A stretch of 64,000 bases of DNA from Syntrophaceae bacterium UBA6078 (GTDB taxonomy: Bacteria > Desulfobacterota > Syntrophia > Syntrophales > UBA2210), in the NCBI GenBank assembly GCA_002428735.1, contig DIXO01000009.1, positions 4,108 to 68,107 on the forward strand. The letters are read 5' to 3'. Under the pieces are notes generated by a model that saw only the letters and a program-made list of their open reading frames with translations, had not been told where the DNA came from and made no database searches. Positions 3,608-46,461 of the stretch are shown here, one piece after another. The first letter of the stretch is position 1. Each line of letters starts with the position of its first letter. The position numbers and the translations under genes were made by a program.

Positions 3608-4204
3608 TCAGCCTTTTTTCCGCCTTACCAGCCCGATTCCCGCCAGACCGCATCCGAGGAGCAGCATGGTGGCAGGTTCGGGAACCGGGGCACTCGATGT
3701 CCCCACATTGAATGATATGCCACTGTTATAGAAATGACAGTCGGGATCGAACCCGAGTCCGAAAACACTGTCATTTTCCAGGTACGCGATCAGTGTGCCG
3801 ATCTCAGACGCGTCAAATGAATAGGTTATGTCCTGCGCGATAGGCGGGAGATTCTCCCAGTGTGCCAGCGCGACCTGAATCCCGCTGTATCCCCAGCTTG
3901 CGAAATAGGAGCCATCCCTTGAGCCGTCCCACCCCGTCCTTACGCCGTCTACCGCCGTATCAAGGAGATGCAGGTACAGATCATTCGAACTCCAGTCGTC
4001 ATTGCGGATGCCGTGAAAGGTCACGGATGCCGATGTTATGGTCTCTCCCGTGGGGATCGCCCAGTCGTCTTCACCCCAGGTATAATAATAGTTGTGATCG
4101 AGATCATACAGGTCGCCGAGATTCCATTCGAATGTCGTGGCGCGGGCCATCCCGGACAGTGACAATACAAACAGCACCGATATAATACACAATAATCTTC
4201 TCAT
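3608..4204 (-). CDS. PEP-CTERM sorting-domain secreted protein
   Basis: The C-terminus PVPEPATMLLLGCGLAGIGLVRRKKG is a textbook PEP-CTERM anchor (PEP motif, TM helix, Arg/Lys tail). I prefer the start at MRRLLCIISVLFVLSLSGMARA (signal peptide, ATG at 4204) over the listed 4264. Confidence 0.8.
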   Translation of the reverse strand: MRRLLCIISVLFVLSLSGMARATTFEWNLGDLYDLDHNYYYTWGEDDWAIPTGETITSASVTFHGIRNDDWSSNDLYLHLLDTAVDGVRTGWDGSRDGSYFASWGYSGIQVALAHWENLPPIAQDITYSFDASEIGTLIAYLENDSVFGLGFDPDCHFYNSGISFNVGTSSAPVPEPATMLLLGCGLAGIGLVRRKKG

Positions 4205-4496
4205 TTCCCGATTCCCTCCATTCAAGGCATTCCCCGGTATTTGGCAGTTCTGTGTATCTTTCACATGGCTTCCCTTTTCCCCGATTTGGAACCTGTTGTA
4301 AATACTACCAAAGTAGTATTTTTAAGTGTTTTCGATACGTTAAGAACGGTTTTTTACTCAATTGAGGGTTTTGTGGGTGGAAAGGGAGTGGTTAGCCGCT
4401 TACGGGAGAGAAAAATATCTGGGGAGTGGCACGGTCCGGGTAGAAGATTTTGGACTGGGGTTGTTTTTAGGGAGGGGGAAATGAAAAAAAGAGATG

Positions 4497-4509
4497 TCTT
4501 GACTAGAAC
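4497..4509 (+). promoter_or_regulatory. shared 13-nt motif TCTTGACTAGAAC, copy 1 (contains a TTGACT -35-like hexamer) upstream of the crotonase gene
   Basis: An identical 13-mer recurs at 5429-5441 upstream of the next gene. Confidence 0.3.
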
Positions 4510-4601
4510 ACTACTATGAATTGTGATAAAAGTTCAGTCAAGGTTTTTTAATGCACGTCTTGGTGCTGGGCGATTTATTATCAATATAAAAGGAGGTTGT
4601 T

Positions 4602-5396
4602 ATGCTGTTTGAAACTATTTTACTGGAAAAAAATGAAGGTATTGGAGTTTTGACGCTTAATAGACCAGAGCGGCAGAATGCATTTAATGAAAAGATGTGG
4701 ACTGAGATGGTTCAGGCACTCCATGAGGTAAATAAAGACGACGAGATTCGGGTTTTGGTGATAAAGGGTGCTGGCAAGGCGTTTTGCGCTGGGGCAGATG
4801 TTGGAGGTATGGCGTCTAAAGAAAAAAAATCAAGAGGAGCTGAGGCAATTCGTAGAGGATTTGCTAATGTCCAGAAAATGATCCTTGGCATTCAACAAAT
4901 GGAAAAGCCAACGATTGCTATGATCAATGGAGCAGCTGTTGGGGGAGGTTTTGACCTGGCATGTGCTTGTGATATTCGCACGGGATCAGAGAATAGCCGC
5001 TTCATGGTTGCATTTACTCGTATCGGTCTTTTCCCTGGTTGGGGAGGTACTTGGCTTATACCGCGAATTATAGGCATACCTAAGGCTGCAGAGATGCTTT
5101 TCACCGGAAACTTTATGGACGCTGAGGAAGCAAAAAGTCTGAATCTATTAAATAAGCTTGTGCCAGCTCAAAACTTGGAAAGCGAAACGATGTCGCTTGC
5201 GCGGCAAATTGCAAATGGTCCTCCCATTGCCATTAGACTAGCTAAATTGCAATTGTACCAAGGGTTAGAAATAGATTTGGATATAGCGCTCAAACTCGCC
5301 GCTGCTTTTGAAACTATTACCCTTTCTTCACAAGACCACAAGGAAGGGGTAGCCGCTTTCCGCGAGAAAAGACACCCCCAATATAGGGGTGAATAA
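4602..5396 (+). CDS. enoyl-CoA hydratase/isomerase (crotonase) family protein
   Basis: AGGAGG RBS. The product contains LTLNRPERQNAF, VIKGAGKAFCAGADV and INGAAVGGGFDLACACDIR, which are classic crotonase oxyanion-hole segments. Confidence 0.85.
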   Translation: MLFETILLEKNEGIGVLTLNRPERQNAFNEKMWTEMVQALHEVNKDDEIRVLVIKGAGKAFCAGADVGGMASKEKKSRGAEAIRRGFANVQKMILGIQQMEKPTIAMINGAAVGGGFDLACACDIRTGSENSRFMVAFTRIGLFPGWGGTWLIPRIIGIPKAAEMLFTGNFMDAEEAKSLNLLNKLVPAQNLESETMSLARQIANGPPIAIRLAKLQLYQGLEIDLDIALKLAAAFETITLSSQDHKEGVAAFREKRHPQYRGE

Positions 5397-5428
5397 TGCC
5401 CCATCTGCTTCATTCAAATTATTAAGGC

Positions 5429-5441
5429 TCTTGACTAGAAC
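5429..5441 (+). promoter_or_regulatory. shared 13-nt motif TCTTGACTAGAAC, copy 2, upstream of the reductase gene
   Basis: Identical to 4497-4509. Here a CATATT -10-like hexamer follows TTGACT after 17 nt. Confidence 0.3.
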
Positions 5442-5719
5442 GGCATAATTAACCATATTAAAAACATAGTCATGTCAACAACTAACAATAATCTCTTTGA
5501 TTTGGTAGCTCGCTATCTGTTTGATTCAGTGTCAAAATAGGATTCATTACCACAGATAAAAATATTTCAATCAATATTATCTGAAAATGAGTTCAGGAAG
5601 TTAATTGGGTTCAGAGATTAACGGAGATTAAAATCAAGCTGCGCAAGCGCTTGCAAGAAAACCATACATTTGCCTGTCCTACAAATCGTGCCCAAAAATC
5701 ATTTAAGGGGATGTCTCTT

Positions 5720-7636
5720 ATGCATATAGAAGGAGAGCTTTTTGAACCTATAACGATTGCCAACATGGAGGTAAAAAATCGGATTGTGATGTCGTCGATT
5801 AGCCTCTCTGCATGGGAGACAGAAAGAGTAAAGCAGTTTTATCTCGAACGTTCGCAAGGCGGCGTGGGACTTATCATTTGTAACCTTGCGACCATCAGAC
5901 GCGAAATGCCTAGAAGAAATCAGATGGCCATTGAGGATGATTCTCGTCTGCCTATGCTAAAGGACTTTGTTAATACTATACACGGAGGCGGTGCTAAAGT
6001 TGCAGCCCAATTGGTAGCGAGGCCAGCATGGAAAAGTGAACATGAACAAGCCGTTGAAATTCTAGGTCCTTCATCAGTACCGTGCTCACATCAGAAAAAT
6101 GTCCCTCCTCCACGCCCCCTTACTAAAGAAGATATTGCATATGTAATTTCTGAAATGGGAAATGCTGCAAAAAGGGCTAAGGATGCCGGATTTGATGCTG
6201 TGGAGTTACATTCTTTTGGTGGATCCTGCTTATTAAGTCAGTTCTTATCACCGGTTATAAATAAAAGAACTGATCAATATGGGGGAACACTCGAAAATCG
6301 TCTGAAGTTTATGCTTGAAATTATTGACAGGATAAGAGGTCAAGTAGGACGTTATTATCCTATCCTCTGTCGCATTTCTGGTGATGAATTTCTTGAAGAT
6401 GGAAACTCAGAGGAAGCAATGGGCGAAGTTGCGCGTATCCTGGAGGGTTGTGGTGTCGATGCAATTAATGTAACGACCGGTTTTTATCTGCTATCCAAAG
6501 TGCCGTTTATGCAAATGCCAGTACCGAGAGGAAACTGGATCTATTTAGCTCAGAAAATTAAACAGGTTGTTAAAATTCCAGTCATTGGAGGAACAAGGAT
6601 AAATGACCCTTTGGTTGCAGAAAAGGCAGTATCATCGGGCAAAATGGATATGGTATATCTTTGCCGTGCACTTATTGCAGATCCCCAATTCCCCAATAAG
6701 GTTATGCAAGGTAGATTCGATGAGATTCAACAATGTATTGCATGTTGCCATTGTCTAGATTCGACAATGGAGGGAAGAGGCCTTGAATGCTCTATTAACC
6801 CTCGAGTAGGCATAGAATTGAACTTTCCTATAACCACTAATGTAGGAAAATCTAAAAAAGTAGTAATAGTTGGCGGAGGCCCTTGCGGTATGGAAGCTGC
6901 CATTACTGCTGAAGAACAAGGACATAAAGTTATACTGTATGAGAGTAATAACCAACTGGGAGGTGCCCTTCTTTTGGCCGCTCTTCCACCGCATAAAGAG
7001 GAAATATCTAATTTTATCAAACAAATGATTAGACGTATCGAAAAATCAAGTATAATTGTAAAGTTAGGTGAAAAAGGAACAATCCCCATGATTTTAGATT
7101 GCAATCCAGATTTGGTGATTTTTGCAACAGGCGCAGATAACTATATCCCCAGTATTCAAGGTATAGAAAATTCTAATGTGATACCTTTTCAAAAAGCTCT
7201 TACTGATGTGGCAAGCGTTGGCAATCGTGTTATTATCATAGGAGGCGGAATGGTAGGGTGTGAAGTTGCTGACTTTTTAGCCATTAGAGGTAAAACTGTA
7301 ACGGTTCTAGAGAAAACAAAGCGTTTTGCTGCTGATGCGGGTAGAACGGGAAGGTGGGTGCTACTTCAGCGACTACGAAACCGGAGTGTGAGATTAGAGG
7401 CCTCAATTGAAGTAACAAAAATTGACCAAAAAGGAGTAACAGCGAAGGTTCCCAATAAAGAAAGGTTTTTTGCCTGTGATACTGTGGTAATTGCCACCGG
7501 ATTTATACCAACAATTGACCTGAAAAAAGAAAAAATAGGTGATAAAATACCTTTCGTTTTCGCGGGCAATTGCAGGAAGCCCGGGCATATAAGACAAGTC
7601 ATTAAGGAAGGGTTTTTAGCAATTCAACAGCTTTAG
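5720..7636 (+). CDS. Old-Yellow-Enzyme / 2,4-dienoyl-CoA reductase-type flavoprotein with a Cys cluster and a C-terminal FAD/NAD(P)-binding domain
   Basis: The N-terminus is a TIM-barrel OYE region (NRIVMSSIS, GFDAVELH). A Cys-rich linker (CIACCHCLDS...ECSINP) follows, then two Rossmann motifs (VVIVGGGPCGMEAA and VIIIGGGMVGCEVA). I prefer the ATG at 5720 because of its spacing from AAGGGG. The listed start at 5651 is a TTG. Confidence 0.8.
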   Translation: MHIEGELFEPITIANMEVKNRIVMSSISLSAWETERVKQFYLERSQGGVGLIICNLATIRREMPRRNQMAIEDDSRLPMLKDFVNTIHGGGAKVAAQLVARPAWKSEHEQAVEILGPSSVPCSHQKNVPPPRPLTKEDIAYVISEMGNAAKRAKDAGFDAVELHSFGGSCLLSQFLSPVINKRTDQYGGTLENRLKFMLEIIDRIRGQVGRYYPILCRISGDEFLEDGNSEEAMGEVARILEGCGVDAINVTTGFYLLSKVPFMQMPVPRGNWIYLAQKIKQVVKIPVIGGTRINDPLVAEKAVSSGKMDMVYLCRALIADPQFPNKVMQGRFDEIQQCIACCHCLDSTMEGRGLECSINPRVGIELNFPITTNVGKSKKVVIVGGGPCGMEAAITAEEQGHKVILYESNNQLGGALLLAALPPHKEEISNFIKQMIRRIEKSSIIVKLGEKGTIPMILDCNPDLVIFATGADNYIPSIQGIENSNVIPFQKALTDVASVGNRVIIIGGGMVGCEVADFLAIRGKTVTVLEKTKRFAADAGRTGRWVLLQRLRNRSVRLEASIEVTKIDQKGVTAKVPNKERFFACDTVVIATGFIPTIDLKKEKIGDKIPFVFAGNCRKPGHIRQVIKEGFLAIQQL

Positions 7637-7641
7637 TTTTA

Positions 7642-8760
7642 TTACCGCGGCAATTATACATAGCAATATTGGTAGTAGTGTGATATGCTGTGCGCATGGA
7701 AAAAGTTGATGGACGCACGCATAGTCCCCAGACGCAATACGAAATCAGGAAGCAAGTTATTCGTCTTCGGAAACAGGGTATTCAGAATCAGGTGTTGGCG
7801 GATGGAATCGGGATCAGCGTATTTCATGCCAGCAGGATCTGGCAAAGCTACTTGAGGGAGGGTAACAAAGCGATCAAGCTGGGGATACGCGGTCGCCGGA
7901 CGGGAGAGAAACGAACCCTTGCGACCGAACAGGAAGCCCAGGTGAAACGAGCCTTGATTGACAAGACACCGGACCAGATGAAGCTTCCCTTTGCGCTGTG
8001 GACGCGGGACGCCGTGAAGTTGTTGATTCGGCAGTTGTTTGGCATTGAGATGCCGATTCGGACCGTTGGTGAGTACCTCAAGCGGTGGGGTTTTACTCCT
8101 CAGAAGCCGGTCAAACGGGCCTATGAGCAGAGCTCGCAGGCGGTAAAGAAGTGGTTGGATACGGATTATCCTGTCATTGCCTCTCGGGCGAAGCTGGAGA
8201 AGGCGGAGATCCACTGGGGCGATGAGACGGGGATTCAGACGGGCGCCAACCGTGTCCGGGGTTTTGCACCGAAGGGAGAGACTCCGGTCATCAGGATGGT
8301 GGCCAAGAAGATCCATGTCAGTATGATTTCGGCCATTACCAATGGCGGTAAGGTGCGCTTCATGATGTACGAAGATGCCATGAATTCCGAGCTCTTGATC
8401 AAGTTTATGACCCGCCTGACCAAAGATGCTGGGCGCACGGTTTTTTTGATTTTGGATAATCTTCGGGCACATCATGGCAAAAATGTCAAACAATGGTTAG
8501 AAGAACACCGGGAACAAATTGAGGTTTTCCATCTGCCCTCATATTCGCCGGAACTCAATCCAGACGAGTATTTAAACGGAAATCTTAAGACCAAAGTACA
8601 CTCCGGCAAGCCGGTTCGTAACAGAGAGGATCTTGAAAAGAAAACCCGTTCATACATGAGAACCCTCCTGAAGAGACCAGCTCATGTCAGAAGCTATTTC
8701 AGGCATCATAAGGTCGCTTATGCCGCGTAATAAAATTGACATGTTCAATTGCCGAACTGA
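7642..8760 (+). mobile_element. IS630-family insertion sequence, apparently intact (about 1.1 kb)
   Basis: It carries a single transposase ORF. The imperfect terminal inverted repeats are TTACCGCGGCAATTATACAT (left) and the reverse complement of the right end, TCAGTTCGGCAATTGAACAT. TA dinucleotides flank both ends (7640-7641 and 8761-8762), as expected for IS630 target duplication. Confidence 0.75.
7690..8730 (+). CDS. IS630-family (Tc1/mariner-like) DDE transposase
   Basis: 346 aa with an N-terminal HTH. Typical IS630 strings are present: HWGDETG, FLILDNLRAHH and LPSYSPELNPDEYLN. The start is GTG 7690 or ATG 7696. Confidence 0.85.
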   Translation: MRMEKVDGRTHSPQTQYEIRKQVIRLRKQGIQNQVLADGIGISVFHASRIWQSYLREGNKAIKLGIRGRRTGEKRTLATEQEAQVKRALIDKTPDQMKLPFALWTRDAVKLLIRQLFGIEMPIRTVGEYLKRWGFTPQKPVKRAYEQSSQAVKKWLDTDYPVIASRAKLEKAEIHWGDETGIQTGANRVRGFAPKGETPVIRMVAKKIHVSMISAITNGGKVRFMMYEDAMNSELLIKFMTRLTKDAGRTVFLILDNLRAHHGKNVKQWLEEHREQIEVFHLPSYSPELNPDEYLNGNLKTKVHSGKPVRNREDLEKKTRSYMRTLLKRPAHVRSYFRHHKVAYAA

Positions 8761-23407: not shown

Positions 23408-24097
23408 TTACAGACGGGCCCGTTTCTCAAGTCGTTCCATATCGAGTATCTGAAGGGTGTCCCCTTCGGCATTGACCAATCCTTTTTCTCGTAGCACTCT
23501 CAATTCCTTGTTGATGCTTTCCCGTGTCGTGCCAACGATGCTCGCGAGATCTCTCTGGGTAAGACGCAGGCCGATCTCGACAGGGCCTCCCTCTTCAGCC
23601 GCGCTGCCGTATTTTCTGCCTAACTCCACGAGCCTTCGGGCGAACCGCGTCGGGATATTGAGAAAATGGGCGTCCTCGAGAAGTTCATCCGTCCTGCGCA
23701 ACTGCATGGAAAGATATGAAAAGATCGCCACGATGGCCCCCTCGTTACCCGTCAGGAATGCGATAAAATCTCCTCTGTTCAGGGCCAGCAGTTCGGAAGG
23801 CTCAAGGGCGATCACATCGGCCGAGCGGGGCATACCGTCCAGAAGCGCCAGCTCGCCGAAGAAATCTCCCTTGGACAGGATCGCGGCCGCAACCTCGTCG
23901 CCCATTTCCGAGGGAAGAACAATCTTGACACTCCCCGCTTTTACTATATACAGTGTGGAACCTTCGTCACCCTTGCGGAAGAGCGCTTCCCCTTTTTTCA
24001 GGGAACGGCGTTTGAGCGAGGCGGCGAGGGATTCCCTGTCGCTGTCGCTGAGGGATTGAAAGAGGGATACCCCCTGTAAGAACTCTTCAGGTTTCAT
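23408..24097 (-). CDS. Crp/Fnr-family transcriptional regulator
   Basis: It has a cNMP-binding beta-barrel (GDEGSTLYIVKAGSVKI, GDFFGELALLDG.PRSA) and a C-terminal HTH (TQRDLASIVGTTRESINKELR). I chose the start MKPEEF at 24097. Confidence 0.85.
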   Translation of the reverse strand: MKPEEFLQGVSLFQSLSDSDRESLAASLKRRSLKKGEALFRKGDEGSTLYIVKAGSVKIVLPSEMGDEVAAAILSKGDFFGELALLDGMPRSADVIALEPSELLALNRGDFIAFLTGNEGAIVAIFSYLSMQLRRTDELLEDAHFLNIPTRFARRLVELGRKYGSAAEEGGPVEIGLRLTQRDLASIVGTTRESINKELRVLREKGLVNAEGDTLQILDMERLEKRARL

Positions 24098-24293
24098 AAT
24101 AGTATATGCACCGTAAATCCTTTGTGTCCTCACGGAGAGAAGAACATGCCGCAGGCTATCTTTCGGAGGATACCTGTGCCCGTATGCGGCACTGAAGATA
24201 AAGTATAGACAATACGCTACGGCAAGTCAAAAAATATCTTTGAAGGAGGAAATCTCCGCCGCGGGGGTTCCCTGATCGAACGGAGGGCACGAG

Positions 24294-24695
24294 ATGAACC
24301 AGTTTACGGTACGAACCGGCTCGCGGTTCGAAATGATCGACATTACGGGAGAGATACGCTCTATCCTGAAGAAAAGCGGGATGATGGAGGGGGTGTGTCA
24401 TCTGTTTGTGCCCCATACCACCACCGCCGTCACCATCAATGAAAACGCAGACCCCGATGTGCCGAAAGATATTCTGGCTGAGCTGGATAAGATCGTTCCG
24501 CTGCATGATGCCTACCGGCATATGGAGGTAAATTCCGCCGCCCATATCAAGGCATCCCTGTTCGGTTCTTCCGAGACTCTCCTCGTGGAAGGGGGGAGCC
24601 TGATTCTGGGGACCTGGCAGTCGGTCTTCTTCTGCGAATTCGACGGCCCGCGGACGAGAAAGGTCCTGGTTGAGTGTGTTCCCCATCCTCGTTGA
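24294..24695 (+). CDS. yjbQ: YjbQ-family (UPF0047) secondary thiamine-phosphate synthase-like protein
   Basis: Contains FVPHTTTAVTINENADPDV and NSAAHIKASLFGSS...GTWQ, the hallmark YjbQ strings. Confidence 0.85.
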   Translation: MNQFTVRTGSRFEMIDITGEIRSILKKSGMMEGVCHLFVPHTTTAVTINENADPDVPKDILAELDKIVPLHDAYRHMEVNSAAHIKASLFGSSETLLVEGGSLILGTWQSVFFCEFDGPRTRKVLVECVPHPR

Positions 24696-24744
24696 GAGCC
24701 CGGCACATCGTCCCGCATTCAAAAACAGGAGAAATACCAACTAT

Positions 24745-25329
24745 ATGAACATGCAGGCATCCTTTATCCTGGCATCCGCCTCGCCCCGCCGCAGGGAACT
24801 GCTTGGCGCGCTGATACCGGGTTTTCAAATAATCCCCAGTGAGGTGGACGAGGAACCGCTGGACGGAGAATCACCGGGCGATCATGTCCTGCGGCTCGCG
24901 AGAGAGAAGGCCCTGGCCGTGTCCCGGGTGTACCCGGACCGCTGGGTCCTGGGGGCGGATACGATTGTGGTCATAGACGGGGAGATGCTGGGCAAGCCCG
25001 AGACGCCCGCGGAGGCCCGGAGGATGCTCGCCAAGCTGAGCGGCCGTGAGCACATGGTTATCACGGGGTTCGCTCTTGTGAAGGGAGATGCTGTCATTGC
25101 CAATGAATGTGTCCGATCCGACGTCCTGTTCAAGGAGATATCCAAGAATGAGATGGAGTGGTACACCCAGACGGATGAGCCATACGACAAGGCAGGGGGG
25201 TACGCTGTCCAGGGGAAAGCGGCTTTTTTCATAAAGGAAATACGCGGCTCGTACACAAACGTCATCGGCCTTCCCCTGTGCGAGGTCGTATCGGCGATGG
25301 AAAAAGAGGGGGTCCTGAAACTGGCGTGA
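24745..25329 (+). CDS. maf: Maf-family nucleoside triphosphate pyrophosphatase
   Basis: Contains ILASASPRRRELL, LGADTIVV and KAGGYAVQGKAAFFIKEIRGSYTNVIGLPL. I chose the start at 24745. Confidence 0.9.
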   Translation: MNMQASFILASASPRRRELLGALIPGFQIIPSEVDEEPLDGESPGDHVLRLAREKALAVSRVYPDRWVLGADTIVVIDGEMLGKPETPAEARRMLAKLSGREHMVITGFALVKGDAVIANECVRSDVLFKEISKNEMEWYTQTDEPYDKAGGYAVQGKAAFFIKEIRGSYTNVIGLPLCEVVSAMEKEGVLKLA

Positions 25330-25458
25330 TTGAGGAGCGAACGGACAGGCTCAGGAAAACAGAACAATCAATCTGTTCCCCTCTCCTTGAAAGTCTGACT
25401 TTGAACTGGGTCGTTTTTCGGGGAAAGGCACGAAGGGTGAGGATGGAAAGGCTTAATA

Positions 25459-26898
25459 GTGAGAGATAAAAGAATCTTGTTAGTAACAGTGCCCATTATG
25501 GATGAAATAGACGGTAAGATTCAGCCGATCATGATGGACAAAACCCGGTCGAATCCCCCCACAGGAGTCTATCTGCTCGCTGGGATTTTGAAAAAGAGCC
25601 GCATTACGTTTCGATTTCTGGATTTGATTGCCGGAGGGGTCTTCGATCTGGAAAATATTGATAAAGATCTCGAGGAGATCGATATCATTGCTCTTCCCGC
25701 CAATTCACTTAATTGGCCCAGCGCATTACTCCTCATCAATCGAGCAAAACAGATTAATCCACAATCGACTATTATCCTCGGAAATATTCACGGCACCATG
25801 TTTCCTGAATATATATTGGCTCATTATCCGGTTGATTATATTCTGCGGGGAGAGGCGGAAATGTCTTTTCGGGCATTGATTGAATGCTTGTTGAAAGGGA
25901 AGGAACCGGACAATATGTCGGGGCTTTGTTTCAAGAAAAAGGGAATGATGTATATTGACCCTATTATCCCGACGCTGACCGAGGAGCAGCTGAATCAAAA
26001 TCTAATTCCTCTTTGGGATATTATCCCTGAGAACGCCTATACATCTCTTTCGATCGAGTCTTCCCGAGGCTGTAAATTCAATTGTCTCTTTTGTTCAATT
26101 CCTTACCGCAGAAATTGGCGTAAACTTTCAGCGTCGGTATTTTATGAACGGTGTCTTGAGTCCATTACGTATAGCCGAAGAACGCGATCAAATGTGCTTT
26201 CGATTATCGATGACTGTTTCACGATTGACAAAAAAAGGATTCTGGATATCGTGAGTTTGTTAAAGAACGAAAACTCCCCCCCTTCATTTACCATGGACGC
26301 CAGGGCATCCGATTTACGCGATGCCGAGTTATGTGCTGCGATTGCTCCTTATGTTAACTCAATGCTGGTTGGGGCGGAACTCGGTTATGAAGCCGGGTTA
26401 AAGAAAATAAGGAAAGGCATCCGGCTTCAAGATATTATTGATTCGGCGTCAAACCTCAATGAGATGGGAATTGCCCATCAAACGGTATTTTCATTCATTA
26501 TTGGGTTTCCTTGGGAACGGTATGATGAAGTGATGCAAACCGTTCAGTTTGCTTTTGAACTTTACGCTCGATATGGAGTAAGAATCTACTTGCAATGGCA
26601 CAATCTTATTCCTGGATCAAAAATCTGGTATTCCTTCCTGAACAATCAACAATTGTCGCTGATGGAATATGATACGATGGGATTTTTCCGCAACAGGAAG
26701 CTTATGGGATTGAGTATTGGCCGCAGTAACAATGAAATATTCAAAATATGCGACCGCGTGTTGTCTGTTATCAATCTATCCCGGATTCAGGACCGGATAG
26801 GCAATCTTAACACCCAATCGATTTCCTTTTCCGTTCCATGGCACCTTGTCGATGATTATTCCCAGTATCTGAGTCAAGAGGAACAACAAAAAACATAA
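25459..26898 (+). CDS. B12-binding-domain radical SAM protein (class B-like)
   Basis: 479 aa. The CX3CX2C motif SSRGCKFNCLFCS lies at 26071-26094 (Cys205/209/212). It is preceded by a Rossmann-like N-terminal domain of about 190 aa, the arrangement seen in B12-binding radical SAM enzymes. GTG start. AT-rich coding sequence. Confidence 0.8.
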   Translation: MRDKRILLVTVPIMDEIDGKIQPIMMDKTRSNPPTGVYLLAGILKKSRITFRFLDLIAGGVFDLENIDKDLEEIDIIALPANSLNWPSALLLINRAKQINPQSTIILGNIHGTMFPEYILAHYPVDYILRGEAEMSFRALIECLLKGKEPDNMSGLCFKKKGMMYIDPIIPTLTEEQLNQNLIPLWDIIPENAYTSLSIESSRGCKFNCLFCSIPYRRNWRKLSASVFYERCLESITYSRRTRSNVLSIIDDCFTIDKKRILDIVSLLKNENSPPSFTMDARASDLRDAELCAAIAPYVNSMLVGAELGYEAGLKKIRKGIRLQDIIDSASNLNEMGIAHQTVFSFIIGFPWERYDEVMQTVQFAFELYARYGVRIYLQWHNLIPGSKIWYSFLNNQQLSLMEYDTMGFFRNRKLMGLSIGRSNNEIFKICDRVLSVINLSRIQDRIGNLNTQSISFSVPWHLVDDYSQYLSQEEQQKT

Positions 26899-26940
26899 AA
26901 ATTTTGACAATTGATAAACTGAAAAAAGGAGGCAAGAAAA

Positions 26941-27276
26941 ATGGCAAAGATTACAGTAAATATTCCGGACAACATTATTCAACTGGGCAAAGATTTGATG
27001 AGCGATGATTCGCTCCGAGACCGGTTTGATGAAAATCCTGTTGAGGTTTTAAATGAATACGGATTCAAACTTCCGGAAGAACTGACCAGTGACAAGCTCA
27101 AAGAGTTCAAGGTAAAAGACATGATTCGCGACATGAAGAGCATGGACCGCACGGCAATGCGCGCCGCAGCAGTTGCTGAAGCGGAAATTGTTGTCGAAGC
27201 GGCAATGACGCCTTATACCTATCCCGTGACAATGGTTGTCGTTGGTGTGGCTGTAGCGACAACAGTAGGCGAATAG
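26941..27276 (+). CDS. 111-aa ORF: candidate RiPP precursor with a Nif11/NHLP-like leader and a Val/Ala/Thr-rich C-terminal core
   Basis: AGGAGG sits 8 nt upstream of the ATG, and the ORF starts 42 nt after the radical SAM stop. The leader-like stretch is DDSLRDRFDENPVEVLNEYGFKLPEEL. The C-terminus is AAAVAEAEIVVEAAMTPYTYPVTMVVVGVAVATTVGE, with no Cys. Confidence 0.55.
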   Translation: MAKITVNIPDNIIQLGKDLMSDDSLRDRFDENPVEVLNEYGFKLPEELTSDKLKEFKVKDMIRDMKSMDRTAMRAAAVAEAEIVVEAAMTPYTYPVTMVVVGVAVATTVGE

Positions 27277-27367
27277 AAATAAACGCCTTGTCAAATAATG
27301 CTGGAATTTGCTCGCTTCCATTGAGGGCTTGATCCGTTCACATGGCTTTGGTTGTTATTGAAATTAT

Positions 27368-27525
27368 GAAAAGTGGAGGGGGGTAAACATGGGACGGGGA
27401 AGGGCGCCTTCTTGATCGGGGAGATTTGCGACTCACACACCACCGCGATCGGTCTCCCCCTGTCCGAGGTGGTCAACGCGATGGAAAGGGTCGGGGGCGC
27501 TCAGACTGGCGTAAGCGGAAGATGA
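27368..27525 (+). pseudogene. relic of a maf 3' end (diverged duplicate of 25186-25329), followed by a duplicated terminator-like hairpin
   Basis: Translating 27391-27525 gives GTGKGAFLIGEICDSHTTAIGLPLSEVVNAMERVGG...*, against the intact Maf C-terminus VQGKAAFFIKEIRGSYTNVIGLPLCEVVSAMEKEG...*. The downstream GGAAAACAGAA...TCTGT.CCC hairpin is also shared (25353-25381 vs 27535-27562). Confidence 0.75.
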
Positions 27526-27713
27526 GGAAAGCCACGGAAAACAGAAAAACAAGTCTGTCCCTTTTTGTTTTATTAAACGTTGGTTCTTAAGAAGTGATAT
27601 GAATGACTTGCAGCCATTATTAAAAAAATATGAAGGCAATCGCGTCATTCGTGGCCTAATTCAGTTGGTGCCATTTGGTATAGGAGGCAATTGACGTTGT
27701 TCTCACCAAGACC

Positions 27714-28283
27714 TTGGAAAATATTCAAGAAGAAAGAGCAGACGCATTTTTTGATGAGTTGGCGGCTGGCAACATCTTTGTTGATGAGGGTCTTCTGAAG
27801 TCTGAAGATTTTTTACATGCATATTATGCAACAACCAAGTTTGCCTTAAATTCTAGAAGGCGAGAAAAAATAAGAATGTTCGCCCGTCTCTTGAAAAGTT
27901 CGCTTACTGATAATGAAATTTCAAACATCGATGAGTATGAAGATTTTCTCAAAATACTAGACGAACTAAGCTATCGCGAACTGATAGCCTTAAGAGTTTT
28001 AGACGAATTTGGATCAACTCCAAGAACCGAAGAGCAAAACGATCTCCAGTGGACAAACCAGTTTTGGGACAAATTCGAAAAACGTCTATCAAGTGAATTG
28101 GGAATACCAACTAATCAACTAACTGATTTTATGAACAGAATAGCACGAACCGGATGTTATGAAATGTTTACGGGTGGATACATGGATTATACTGGAGGAA
28201 AAGGCAAATTAACTCCCACCTACCATAGACTTAGGGGATTTGTTGAAGAAAGCGAAAAGGCCGAACACAAATGGGTCAACTAA
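27714..28283 (+). CDS. hypothetical protein, possibly the frameshifted body of a longer gene starting at ATG 27601
   Basis: 189-aa ORF with only a TTG start and no nearby RBS. A 31-aa ORF (27601-27696, MNDLQPLLKKYEGNRVIRGLIQLVPFGIGGN*) ends 18 nt upstream in another frame and reads like its N-terminus. Confidence 0.45.
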   Translation: MENIQEERADAFFDELAAGNIFVDEGLLKSEDFLHAYYATTKFALNSRRREKIRMFARLLKSSLTDNEISNIDEYEDFLKILDELSYRELIALRVLDEFGSTPRTEEQNDLQWTNQFWDKFEKRLSSELGIPTNQLTDFMNRIARTGCYEMFTGGYMDYTGGKGKLTPTYHRLRGFVEESEKAEHKWVN

Positions 28284-28340
28284 GACGCTCCTTACGTTGT
28301 GTCTGCTACCTCAAGCGTTATTTTTTGTGGAGATAAGATA

Positions 28341-28748
28341 ATGGATTCAAAACTCTGGGCTATGTTAATCGGGCTTATAGCTGGTGCCTTTGGGTATTGG
28401 TTTACGACTTTTCATATGCAACCCATCTTAAGATTTCGGAATCTTCGAAACCAAGTATTAATGGATTTCATCTACTATGCTCAGGTTATAAATGCAGAAA
28501 AATTGAATGAAGATATGAAAAAGCTATTCCGAGAACGTGTACTTGTAAACAGAAGATCATCTGCTCAGCTATTTGCCGCAATACAGGATTTGCCATGGTG
28601 GTATTCGCATTACCTAAAACATAGGGGAATTGAACCGGAGAAGGCTGCTACCCACTTGATCGGGTATTCCAATACAACCGATTACGAAGATGCTCACAAA
28701 GTAGAGGAAGCGATCAGAAGGAATCTTAGGTTGCCAAAGCAAACATAA
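28341..28748 (+). CDS. hypothetical N-terminally membrane-anchored protein
   Basis: MDSKLWAMLIGLIAGAFGYWFTTF forms a TM helix, followed by a soluble helical region. AT-rich. No family recognised. Confidence 0.5.
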   Translation: MDSKLWAMLIGLIAGAFGYWFTTFHMQPILRFRNLRNQVLMDFIYYAQVINAEKLNEDMKKLFRERVLVNRRSSAQLFAAIQDLPWWYSHYLKHRGIEPEKAATHLIGYSNTTDYEDAHKVEEAIRRNLRLPKQT

Positions 28749-28883
28749 TCATAATCCTGAAACGTGTCGTCCCCGTTTAAGCTAGGAGAACAAAATAGGT
28801 ATTACCGATAAGACGAGTTAAAACCAGCCAGAGTTTTCTCGCCAGCTCCGCCGGTTTTGTTTTTAGTCAGAAGGGGAATCATA

Positions 28884-29573
28884 ATGTCAGCAGTAGGGGA
28901 CAACATAAGAAAAATACGGGAGGAGATTGCCGAAGCGGCCCTGCGGTCGGGGAGGGAGCCTTCCGCGGTCAGGCTGATGGCCGTGACCAAGACGGTGGAT
29001 GATGCCCGGATCTTGGAGGCGATCGAGGCCGGCGTGGATATCATGGGGGAAAATTACGTCCAGGAGGCGAAACGGAAGATCGAGACGATGAATGTGGATG
29101 TGAGATGGCACATGATCGGTCATCTGCAGTCGAACAAGGCCAAGTACGCCATCAGGCTTTTTGATATGATCCACTCCATCGACCGGCTGAGCCTGGCGGA
29201 GGAGCTTGACAAACGGTCCGCCGCCGTGGGTCGGGTCACCACTGTCCTCATTGAAGTGAACGTAAGCGGCGAGGAGAGCAAAAGCGGCATCCCGGCCGAA
29301 GAGGCGCCCGCACTGGTCAGAAAAATCGCATCCCTCGACAATCTCTCGATCCGGGGCCTCATGACGATGCCTCCCTGGTTCGAAGATCCCGAAAACGCCC
29401 GACCGTACTTTGCGGCCTTGCGGAAGTTGCGAGACCGTATTGCCGATGAGGAGATTCCGGGTGTCGATCTGCGCGAACTCTCCATGGGGATGTCGGCGGA
29501 TTACCGGGTCGCCGTGGAAGAGGGCGCGACCATTGTCAGGATCGGGACCGCCATATTCGGTCCCCGGGCATAG
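28884..29573 (+). CDS. yggS: YggS-family pyridoxal-phosphate homeostasis protein
   Basis: Contains LMAVTKT (PLP Lys), GENYVQEA, WHMIGHLQSNK and LSMGMSADY. I chose the start at 28884. Confidence 0.88.
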   Translation: MSAVGDNIRKIREEIAEAALRSGREPSAVRLMAVTKTVDDARILEAIEAGVDIMGENYVQEAKRKIETMNVDVRWHMIGHLQSNKAKYAIRLFDMIHSIDRLSLAEELDKRSAAVGRVTTVLIEVNVSGEESKSGIPAEEAPALVRKIASLDNLSIRGLMTMPPWFEDPENARPYFAALRKLRDRIADEEIPGVDLRELSMGMSADYRVAVEEGATIVRIGTAIFGPRA

Positions 29574-45339: not shown

Positions 45340-46461
45340 ATGGAGAAGAGAGAAATCAGGATCATACTGGCGGGCGGGGGAACGGGGGGGCATCTCTTCC
45401 CCGCCATCGCCCTCGCCGAGGAATTTATGGGACGGTCGCCCATGCATAAGGTGCTTTTCATAGGAACCGAGAGGGGCCTGGAGGCCAGGCTTCTTCCACG
45501 ACTGGGTTTCGCGCTTCGAACGATTACCGTGGAGGGGGTGAAGGGCAGAGGCCCCGTAAGGATGCTGGGGAGTCTGCTCAAGATCCCCCGGGGGATGGCA
45601 CAATCCTTTTCGATTCTGCGCGAATTCCGCCCCCATATCGCTCTGGGCGTGGGGGGGTACGCATCGGGTCCCGCGGTACTGGCGGCTCATTGTATGGGCA
45701 TCAAGACGGCCATTGCGGAGCAGAACGCCCTCCCCGGTACCACAAACAGGATCCTGGGGAGGTTCGCGGACAGGGTGTTCCTGACCTTCCCCGACCGGGA
45801 AAGACGGTTTGCGGCCGAGAAGACCGTTGTCACGGGGAACCCCGTGAGGAGGGCGTTTACAGAAGGAATGATCAGAACCGGCCGGGATAAAAGGGCCTTT
45901 TCGATCCTTGTTTTCGGAGGGAGTCAGGGGGCGCGGGCCATCAACCGGGCCGTTATGGAAGCACTGCCCTATCTGGCGGACATGAAAGAGGCGCTGGTAA
46001 TAGTGCACCAGACGGGAGAGAGAGAGGCCGATGAGGTGTCCGCCACCTATCGCGACTATGGCATTCGTGCCGCGGTGCATCCCTTCATCGATGACATGGC
46101 GTCCGCGTACGGGGCGGCAGATCTCCTGATATGCAGGGCGGGAGCGACTTCCATTGCCGAGATAACCGCTATGGGCAGGGCGTCGATCCTGATTCCCTAC
46201 CCCTTCGCAGTGGGAGGACATCAGGAGATGAACGCCCGCGTTCTTGCCGATGCGGGGGCGGCGGAGATGATACTCGAGGAGCGGCTTGATGGAAAAACAC
46301 TTGCCGGGGCCATCCGAAGGCTTGTGGAAAGCCCGGAAGGGGTACGCCGAATGGAAGTGGCCTCCGCACGATGCGGAAATGTAAAGGCGGCGGCCCGCAT
46401 CGTGGATGAGTGCATGGCCTTGCTGGACGGAAAATCGATGGTACAGACGGGGAGAATCTGA
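45340..46461 (+). CDS. murG: undecaprenyldiphospho-muramoylpentapeptide beta-N-acetylglucosaminyltransferase
   Basis: Contains AGGGTGGHLFPAIALAEE, GGSQGA and RAGATSIAEI....A.ILIP. Confidence 0.93.
   Translation: MEKREIRIILAGGGTGGHLFPAIALAEEFMGRSPMHKVLFIGTERGLEARLLPRLGFALRTITVEGVKGRGPVRMLGSLLKIPRGMAQSFSILREFRPHIALGVGGYASGPAVLAAHCMGIKTAIAEQNALPGTTNRILGRFADRVFLTFPDRERRFAAEKTVVTGNPVRRAFTEGMIRTGRDKRAFSILVFGGSQGARAINRAVMEALPYLADMKEALVIVHQTGEREADEVSATYRDYGIRAAVHPFIDDMASAYGAADLLICRAGATSIAEITAMGRASILIPYPFAVGGHQEMNARVLADAGAAEMILEERLDGKTLAGAIRRLVESPEGVRRMEVASARCGNVKAAARIVDECMALLDGKSMVQTGRI

Follow-up and report, generated by a model that had tools for sequence, protein, structure and literature searches.

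A class-B radical SAM enzyme gene followed by a precursor-like small gene

We examined a 64,000-nucleotide (nt) stretch of contig DIXO01000009.1 from Syntrophaceae bacterium UBA6078 (hereafter the window), in which an earlier note, written from the DNA letters alone, had proposed that two adjacent genes form a module for a peptide made on the ribosome and altered after translation (RiPP). The first gene (25459..26898, + strand, as are the parts of the two genes described below) encodes a protein of 479 amino acids (aa) that, by its sequence, has the class-B architecture of a B12-binding domain combined with a radical S-adenosylmethionine (SAM) domain. Its N-terminus (MRDKRILLVTVPIMDE) agrees with the family consensus M.ILL..VP.MD, which supports the assigned GTG start. 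The Rossmann-type B12-binding domain is predicted at N-terminal residues 33-140 (25555..25878; PF02310, 37.6 bits against a Pfam cut-off of 32.1) and the radical SAM core at residues 199-365 (26053..26553; PF04055, 49.2 against 29.5 bits). Residues 204-212 read GCKFNCLFC, which gives the CX3CX2C motif of the [4Fe-4S] cluster (C205, C209 and C212; 26071..26094); length, layout and motif position are thus as first described. In an alignment of 30 enzyme sequences (A3), G108 and H111 of the predicted B12-binding domain never vary; the same is true of C205 and C212, and C209 is nearly invariant. No cysteine besides the three of the motif is conserved in A3, so that an auxiliary cluster is not indicated, and Pfam gave no match to a SPASM domain in the enzyme.

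The second gene (26941..27276) follows after 42 nt, begins with ATG and encodes a precursor-like protein of 111 aa; a Shine-Dalgarno sequence, AGGAGG (26927..26932), stands 8 nt upstream of its start codon, in agreement with the earlier description. Comparison with L086, an 88%-identical contig, yielded 26 synonymous and 6 non-synonymous differences in this open reading frame (ORF), corresponding to a ratio of non-synonymous to synonymous rates (dN/dS) of 0.049, against ratios of 3.4 and 5.7 when this DNA is read in its two shifted frames. The enzyme gene gave 0.115 in the same comparison. Judged by these substitution patterns and by homologues that adjoin enzyme homologues elsewhere, the small ORF is a genuine gene, and purifying selection on it is strong.

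An NHLP-clan leader and a conserved core-like tail

Approximately residues 8-56 of the small protein (26962..27108) are predicted to form a leader domain of the nitrile hydratase-like leader peptide (NHLP) clan, with three short helices followed by GFKLPEE. Four NHLP-clan models of NCBIfam align to residues 10-60, namely TIGR04351 (E 4.7e-6; 26.1 bits against a cut-off of 65), TIGR04509 (E 2.3e-4; 21.2 against 34), NF038399 (E 6.2e-4; 19.8 against 40) and TIGR03793 (E 9e-3; 15.8 against 50.9). A profile of 37 homologues with the window's small ORF as its first sequence (A6) matched in the PDB the nitrile hydratase alpha chain 1v29_A (E 3.8e-6) together with seven more alpha chains of this enzyme (E about 3e-4), the Os1348 structure 6lk7_A (E 1.4e-5) and, more weakly, 8tb1_A, a nuclear magnetic resonance structure of an NHLP proteusin precursor (E 0.067). 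A match to 'Rhobin9', a de novo designed rhodamine binder, was rejected as a chance match. One relative of the small ORF, from Methylocystis, clears the NF038399 cut-off (45.9 against 40 bits), and Nif11 appears as a weak secondary match in some relatives only. At the level of the family, these profile alignments are decisive: the leader is homologous to the NHLP clan, and its affinity is not specifically to Nif11. Of the resemblance to Nif11 and NHLP leaders that had been noted before, the NHLP part holds through the family profile and the Methylocystis relative. The hidden Markov model (HMM) searches suggested at that time recovered both Pfam domains of the enzyme and, for the small ORF, alignments to leader models that remained below threshold. 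An AlphaFold2 model of the small protein places helices at residues 10-21, 23-31 and 33-39, with a predicted local distance difference test score (pLDDT) of about 80-89 over residues 11-50 and low confidence over residues 59-111.

The leader is followed by a variable linker (residues 57-84; 27109..27192; pLDDT mostly <50), which aligns poorly and differs in length across the family. The protein ends in a core-like tail, IVVEAAMTPYTYPVTMVVVGVAVATTVGE (approximately residues 83-111; 27193..27273), that aligns with the conserved cores of relatives, a homology evident in two alignments (A5 and A6). The tail is rich in Val, Thr, Pro and Ala and, as already observed, free of Cys; the entire 111-aa protein contains neither Cys nor Gly-Gly, and a classical VAGG was seen only in one peripheral relative (L072).

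In A6, the tail carries the motif T90-x-x-T93-x-P95-x-x-x-V99-x-V101 (27208..27243). Nearly invariant columns are T90, G92, T93, P95, V97, V99 and V101, and the window's protein deviates at two of them (Y at 92, T at 97). The family motif can be written T-x-(G)-T-x-P-x-V-x-V-x-V or T-x-G-T-R/K-P-x-V-x-V-x-V (in sequence form VRVATNGTRPAV), and typical cores of relatives include ...AVLVRVATNGTRPAVSVVVRSSTFA..., ...VRVGTRPGTRPGVRVGVRVATGTSTF... and ...TKGTKPAVSVITKGTQPAVQVGV.... Of 52 non-redundant adjacent precursors, 23 match the pattern T.P[AVGI][VIT].[VIA] and 38 match [VI].[VI].[VI], compared to 0.5% and 7.6%, respectively, of control ORF tails. Residues 59-111 are the most constrained part of the small ORF: against L086 they show 15 synonymous differences and 1 non-synonymous difference, with a dN/dS of 0.015 for the tail versus 0.091 for the leader.

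Several relatives depart from this plan. A multi-core precursor of 430 aa (L031, 5547-6839) combines an NHLP-type leader with three SPLVRV(A/V)TGGTRPVVNVATG repeats, also written SPLVRV(A/V)TGGTRPVVNVATGVAPLG, and with ATNPVTQT-like repeats; a 390-aa precursor relative (L019, 4106-5278) has the leader, (ETP)n repeats and Ala/Gly/Glu repeats. Two peripheral members carry Cys-rich cores on the same kind of leader (L036, 6064-6345, ECAFTCDGISCIVTICGCVPFTT; L072, 5525-5830, VAGGKSGQTGCCCTGLCCCTGHGV), which suggests that at the edge of the family the leader-enzyme partnership tolerates very different cores.

The pair recurs across bacterial phyla and in archaea

A scan of one genome per species returned 75 loci, and 85 loci were examined in all. 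With the small ORF alone as query, a word-index search recovered the ORF itself and one relative at 65%, and an exhaustive profile search six more; the family emerged only by walking out from the enzyme. A metagenome contig scan with an alignment of the close enzyme subfamily gave one distant locus and nothing useful. Downstream of every close relative of the enzyme (56-88% identity) comes a homologous 108-111-aa ORF, and in the loci of these relatives (L001, L004, L005/L006, L086 and L087) the pair lies in unrelated neighbourhoods. Two loci with enzymes at 42% identity retain the same leader and a V/A/T/R/P-rich tail, in a 117-aa ORF downstream of the enzyme gene (L007) and in a 140-aa ORF upstream of it (L009); across loci, the enzyme gene and the NHLP-clan ORF occur either way round. 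The 75 loci comprise Alphaproteobacteria, Myxococcota, Actinomycetota, Acidobacteriota, Chloroflexota, Planctomycetota, Chlorobiota, Bacillota, Omnitrophota, Zixibacteria and Desulfobacterota-like metagenome-assembled genomes (MAGs), as well as two archaeal MAGs (Methanobacteriaceae and Methanosarcinales).

We iterated the leader HMM and searched the 85 loci with it, covering 6055 ORFs with a length of 35 aa or more and classifying a match as adjacent if it lay on the same strand at most 700 nt from the enzyme gene. Among 64 matches, three fell outside this range, and 61 of the 85 loci had an adjacent match, which bears out the co-occurrence of both genes that the earlier note had singled out as a check. 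Where a leader match is lacking, mostly the enzyme is among the most divergent or the locus is truncated. Enzyme identity and leader identity correlate in pairwise comparison (r = 0.65, reached by 0 of 2000 permutations), with r 0.46 below 60% enzyme identity.

No third gene consistently keeps company with the pair. A survey of 136 neighbour ORFs, drawn from about 50 loci, met each Pfam family at most four times (the commonest, Radical_SAM, four times), and no protease, exporter or epimerase recurred. Because nothing else travels consistently with the two genes, we take these two as the conserved functional unit.

Some loci have additional features. In eight of them (L013, L018, L020, L021, L022, L029, L045 and L083; from Alphaproteobacteria, Acidobacteriota and Kribbella), a multi-pass membrane protein of about 240-280 aa without a Pfam match adjoins the pair; it has no homologue in the window and is a candidate third component of its subfamily. 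L007 additionally holds a radical SAM-SPASM gene and an upstream OEP/MFP/MacB exporter. Four loci from Desulfoluna and relatives (L038, L039, L046 and L078) have enzyme homologues without an NHLP-type ORF and, about 100-1500 nt downstream, highly repetitive DNA with Pro/His/Trp/Arg-rich ORFs in several frames.

The enzyme lies outside curated families

None of the curated NCBIfam families claims the enzyme, as every model scores far below its cut-off. The highest score was obtained with TIGR04013 (MJ_1487; 87.7 bits against 251), followed by the models for HpnJ (75 against 578), ApyD (NF050148; 74 against 750), BchE (71 against 481), the glutamine C-methyltransferase QCMT (TIGR04014; 61.2 against 360) and the PoyB/C-type TIGR03975 (45.2 against 281.85; relatives of the enzyme reach 57-70 bits). 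Seven relatives from named organisms were likewise nowhere near the NCBIfam cut-offs, and PADLOC returned a generic likeness of B12-binding radical SAM type to PDC-M51A (43 bits). The closest sequence match in the PDB is QCMT (9CCB; E 3e-15, 18% identity). An AlphaFold2 model of the enzyme (pLDDT 91.9) gave as best Foldseek matches QCMT/MgmA (9ccb), AprD4, OxsB, CysS, TsrM and TokK (E 9e-19 to 1e-13), the structures matched including 9ccb, 5ul4, 9n1d, 6wte and 7kdx. The modelled fold of the enzyme is that of the OxsB/TsrM/TokK/QCMT structural class.

Relation to known systems

The polytheonamide and aeronamide proteusins (PoyA with PoyB/PoyC) share with the pair a long NHLP-clan leader, folded by prediction in the window's protein, a Val/Thr/Ala-rich core and a class-B radical SAM enzyme as maturase, a putative role in the window. 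The B12-dependent radical SAM enzymes PoyB and PoyC methylate Val, Ile and other residues on their NHLP precursor, PoyC acting on the beta-carbons of Val and Ile (PMC11285071), and the chemistry in the window is likened to theirs by analogy. Unlike them, the window enzyme belongs to another clade (45 versus 282 bits for TIGR03975) and has CX3CX2C in place of the CX7CX2C of PoyC; the two-gene unit has no PoyD-type epimerase, N-methyltransferase, dehydratase, protease or Gly-Gly; and the core motif of its family is conserved across phyla instead of being variable.

Clavusporins are made from MpcA by MpcB and the DUF5825 protein MpcC, which place beta-methyl groups on Pro, Val, Ile and Thr of the core KPSVGITITVPFR, behind which stands an acidic follower (PMC10849626). 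Their hydrophobic Val/Ile/Thr/Pro core, multiply beta-methylated by a B12-binding radical SAM enzyme (in the window a proposed reaction), and their charged follower, as found in many relatives of the window's protein, are points of likeness. We reckon as a further, possible one that the product is a physical agent, a surfactant rather than a classical antibiotic (PMC10849626). The differences are that MpcA is a 39-mer with a short leader and no NHLP domain, that MpcB is larger, has CX7CX2C and strictly depends on MpcC, and that the mpc operon, confined to Actinobacteria, always includes an S9 peptidase and a major facilitator superfamily (MFS) transporter (PMC10849626). None of these mpc partners (DUF5825 protein, S9 peptidase, MFS transporter) was found flanking the window pair.

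QCMT/MgmA (PDB 9CCB, TIGR04014) is the best solved match to the enzyme in both sequence and fold and has the same compact architecture of Rossmann domain, TIM barrel and helical C-terminus in about 450-480 aa. It is the MCR glutamine C-methyltransferase and acts on a protein, in which it methylates an sp3 carbon (PMC12931638). The two enzymes are nevertheless distant (18% identity, 61 versus 360 bits), and the substrate of QCMT is a large enzyme subunit instead of a small leader-bearing precursor from a neighbouring gene. Os1348 (NF038399, PDB 6LK7) from cluster OS3 of Pseudomonas sp. Os17 has a homologous leader domain according to the A6 profile (E 1.4e-5) and is similarly small (85-110 aa); its link to antibiotic activity and its presumed post-translational modification are reckoned likenesses as well. 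Its partners, in contrast, are GNAT, peptidase, SagB-type dehydrogenase and efflux genes with no radical SAM enzyme, the window's small ORF reaches 19.8 of the 40 bits required by the model, and the tails are unrelated. Among the NCBIfam models annotated as RiPP enzymes, that of ApyD, the B12-binding radical SAM enzyme of aminopyruvatide (NF050148), gives the enzyme clade its highest scores (74-131 bits). Its cut-off, however, is 750 bits over a model of 645 positions, and the cluster of ApyD comprises several enzymes, including a P450 and an MNIO, and a precursor that is not of NHLP type. The cyclopropylglycine synthase TvgB was dropped as a close B12 analogue, as it belongs to the radical SAM family IPR023867; cyclopropylglycine synthase is described as RS-SPASM (PMC10878394).

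By these sequence features, the pair is within the broad proteusin concept through its NHLP-type leader and lacks the features tested for polytheonamide-type proteusins, clavusporins, QCMT and ApyD. The family is apparently uncharacterised: precursor homologues with names are all 'hypothetical protein', enzyme homologues are named generically only, and we found no paper on it in the open-access full-text literature, a search that did not cover most subscription journals. Of the earlier suggestion that the module matches no described class, this much stands; a new class is not warranted, because the NHLP-type leader places the pair in the broad proteusin concept.

Genomic setting and origin of the cassette

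In the window, the pair sits in a compositionally foreign cassette that runs from maf to the next segment (25330..27293), is common to the window and L086, and is flanked by maf, yggS and two ORFs without a Pfam match. Its guanine-plus-cytosine content (GC) is 0.43 versus 0.55 in both flanks, and GC at third codon positions (GC3) is 0.46 for the enzyme gene and 0.48 for the small ORF versus 0.73 for maf and 0.74 for yggS. The AT-richness reported earlier is confirmed, including hand counts that proved exact (23/60 G+C at 26041-26100, 40/60 at 46201-46260). The cassette is foreign in the window lineage only (0.43-0.44 versus 0.55-0.59); in L004, L005, L007, L009 and L087 its GC equals that of the flanks. 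L086 aligns to 24001-27293 with 88% DNA identity, and again to 28891-29557, with the pair at the same site. This shared site and the dN/dS values indicate that the two diverged strains inherited the cassette from their common ancestor and have kept it since. From composition and comparison, we propose that it was transferred horizontally into the window lineage, at the junction of maf and yggS, and was retained under selection.

In L086, the small ORF runs straight into yggS, and the window has an extra 1.6 kb (27294-28890), which by this alignment is a second, separate acquisition at the maf-yggS junction, through recombination or insertion. The segment includes a diverged 3' remnant of maf with about 50 nt of the region downstream of maf (27379-27561; 59% aa identity to Maf residues 176-214, 68% nt identity over 169 nt to 25212-25379). 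We rejected the remnant as a target duplication of the cassette, as the comparison with L086 places it in the separate segment. Also in the segment are two very AT-rich ORFs, one of 189 aa (27714-28283, +; GC3 0.33) with a weak Abi_alpha match (E 0.006) and one of 149 aa (28299-28748, +; GC3 0.38) with a hydrophobic start; neither matched a PADLOC or NCBIfam family. Hairpins near maf folded no better than shuffled sequences.

ORF and domain scans of the window found no epimerase, C39 protease, ABC exporter or further tailoring gene near the pair, in line with what had been observed from the letters. In sequence databases the window corresponds to JGI metagenome contig 3300001567 Draft_10000547, and ENA has a nearly identical contig. 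Other AT-rich islands of the window contain unrelated genes. One of them (4000-8730, GC 0.41-0.44) encodes an enoyl-CoA hydratase (4602-5396) and an OYE-like flavin/pyridine-nucleotide oxidoreductase (5651-7636) and is bordered by an IS630-type DDE_3 transposase (7690-8730). A protein encoded at 3608-4264 (- strand) ends in a PEP-CTERM sorting motif (E 1e-6), and the window also carries type IV pilin genes, SelB and FdhD.

A proposed enzyme-substrate pair and its alternatives

Leader homology, adjacency and a tail unlike a generic membrane anchor support the two-gene RiPP module put forward in the earlier note. We consider it probable that the small protein is the substrate of the enzyme. If it is, C-methylation is the chemistry that we favour, with some reserve, by analogy with PoyB/PoyC on an NHLP precursor and with MpcB/MpcC. 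The complete reading, a self-contained RiPP-type enzyme-substrate pair that C-methylates the Val/Thr/Pro tail, is one that we regard as evenly poised. In this mechanism, the NHLP-clan domain (approximately residues 8-56) of the 111-aa product would dock the precursor onto the 479-aa class-B enzyme, and the flexible tail with T90-x-x-T93-x-P95-x-x-x-V99-x-V101 would enter the active site. A 5'-deoxyadenosyl radical derived from [4Fe-4S]/SAM would take hydrogen from unactivated sp3 carbons of Val, Thr and Pro, and methylcobalamin would then give a methyl group, probably several times, leaving a beta-branched tail that is bulkier and more hydrophobic. We infer the modified residues and the fate and role of the product: with no dedicated protease or exporter in the unit, the product would be trimmed and exported by unlinked host functions, or be active with its leader attached.

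Several observations weigh against this proposal. On its own, the small ORF is below every curated leader cut-off in NCBIfam, and the top Foldseek matches of its model (RiPP precursor leader domains, 8tb1 and nitrile hydratase alpha) all have E > 1. The correlation between enzyme and leader identities may in part reflect shared phylogeny. No recognisable cleavage site was found in the small ORF and no protease or exporter nearby, scans for promoters and terminators resolved none at the cassette, and a core that is more conserved than its leader is unusual for antibiotic RiPPs. As for the chemistry, the enzyme is remote from all curated methyltransferase families (TIGR03975, ApyD and QCMT are far below their cut-offs), and AprD4, which does not methylate, has the same fold.

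These last two points bear on an alternative that retains the enzyme-substrate pair and replaces methylation by another change in the T/P/V core (C-C, C-O or C-S cross-linking, ring formation, epimerisation or rearrangement), possibly at the Tyr-containing TPYTYP core of the window's subfamily. Class-B enzymes also carry out non-methylating reactions such as ring contraction, thioether formation and cross-linking. The position of the enzyme outside all curated methyltransferase families and the presence of non-methylating OxsB and AprD4 among its fold neighbours are compatible with such a reaction, as are the thioether-forming and ortho-tyrosine cross-linking roles of B12-binding radical SAM enzymes in the literature, and the tightly conserved T-x-G-T-R-P is turn-like and would suit a specific cross-link. 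On the other hand, most characterised class-B enzymes that modify peptides or proteins are C-methyltransferases (PoyB/C, the bottromycin methyltransferases, MpcB and QCMT), the conserved Val, Thr and Pro are residues that are beta-methylated in clavusporin, and Tyr is not conserved beyond the close subfamily. We rate a non-methylating reaction as rather unlikely, though a serious competitor.

It is a good deal less probable that the small protein is no substrate at all. It would then be held in the membrane by its tail, or be a partner with a structural or regulatory role, and its C-terminus would be a plain anchor. The window tail PVTMVVVGVAVATTVG is indeed hydrophobic, close relatives end in charged residues after the tail (e.g., ...VVIATSKSSKGEE in L005), and Os1348, of the NHLP clan, is a stable full-length dimer (PMC7726476). 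In a hydropathy analysis, however, a 19-residue segment with a Kyte-Doolittle mean of at least 1.6 was reached by 8 of 54 family members, leaving 46 below this value, and the best segment of the window's protein reached 1.43. Many homologous cores are moreover Arg/Lys-rich or broken up by Arg, Lys, Pro and Gly (e.g., VRVGTRPGTRPGVRVGVRV and TKGTKPAVSVITKGTQPAV). The low values and these interruptions argue against a plain membrane anchor, an outcome that the earlier note had named as fatal to its proposal. The existence of multi-core precursors (L031) speaks against it too, and an anchor would offer no rationale for the strict pairing with a radical SAM enzyme.

We think it very improbable that the small ORF is an unrelated hitch-hiker beside an enzyme whose substrate is a small molecule such as a lipid or cofactor. 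The enzyme's partial NCBIfam likeness to HpnJ, BchE, HpnR and a B12-binding radical SAM enzyme of lipid biosynthesis equals that to RiPP enzymes, but none of these scores comes near its cut-off, the enzyme gene has an NHLP-clan ORF beside it across many phyla in either gene order, and no lipid or cofactor gene recurs among the 136 neighbour ORFs. Least credible of all is inert foreign DNA in decay, which the strongly deviant GC and GC3 and the lack of a recognised promoter or terminator might suggest, but both ORFs are intact at the same site in two strains about 12% apart in DNA, with dN/dS of 0.05 and 0.12, and the strong ribosome-binding site is kept.

Beyond the C-methylating pair, we tentatively entertain a wider reading, which we think possible but not probable, in which the family is an undescribed small-protein modification system of many bacterial phyla and some archaea whose modification is installed by a new class-B clade. 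The product would retain its leader or be processed by the host and would have a conserved physiological role (surface-active, membrane-active or structural), and the chemistry may differ from simple methylation. The higher conservation of core than leader, the lack of a protease or exporter and the new enzyme clade set this reading apart from antibiotic RiPPs.

Implications

B12-binding radical SAM enzymes perform some of the hardest peptide reactions, the functionalisation of unactivated carbons, and to our knowledge few of their clades that modify peptides have been characterised. An enzyme this compact (about 480 aa), whose substrate comes built in and which has no accessory proteins, would be an attractive minimal system for mechanistic study and engineering. 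As a family that NCBIfam does not curate, it offers a good lead to new peptide chemistry and not to a new principle. Culturable carriers of the pair include Rhodopseudomonas rhenobacensis DSM 12706, Methylocystis suflitae, Myxococcus, Streptomyces griseocarneus JCM 4580, Actinomadura mexicana DSM 44485, Chlorobium ferrooxidans DSM 13031 and Aurantimonas coralicida DSM 14790. The conservation of the core across phyla hints that the product may serve a shared physiological function in its hosts, not strain-specific warfare.

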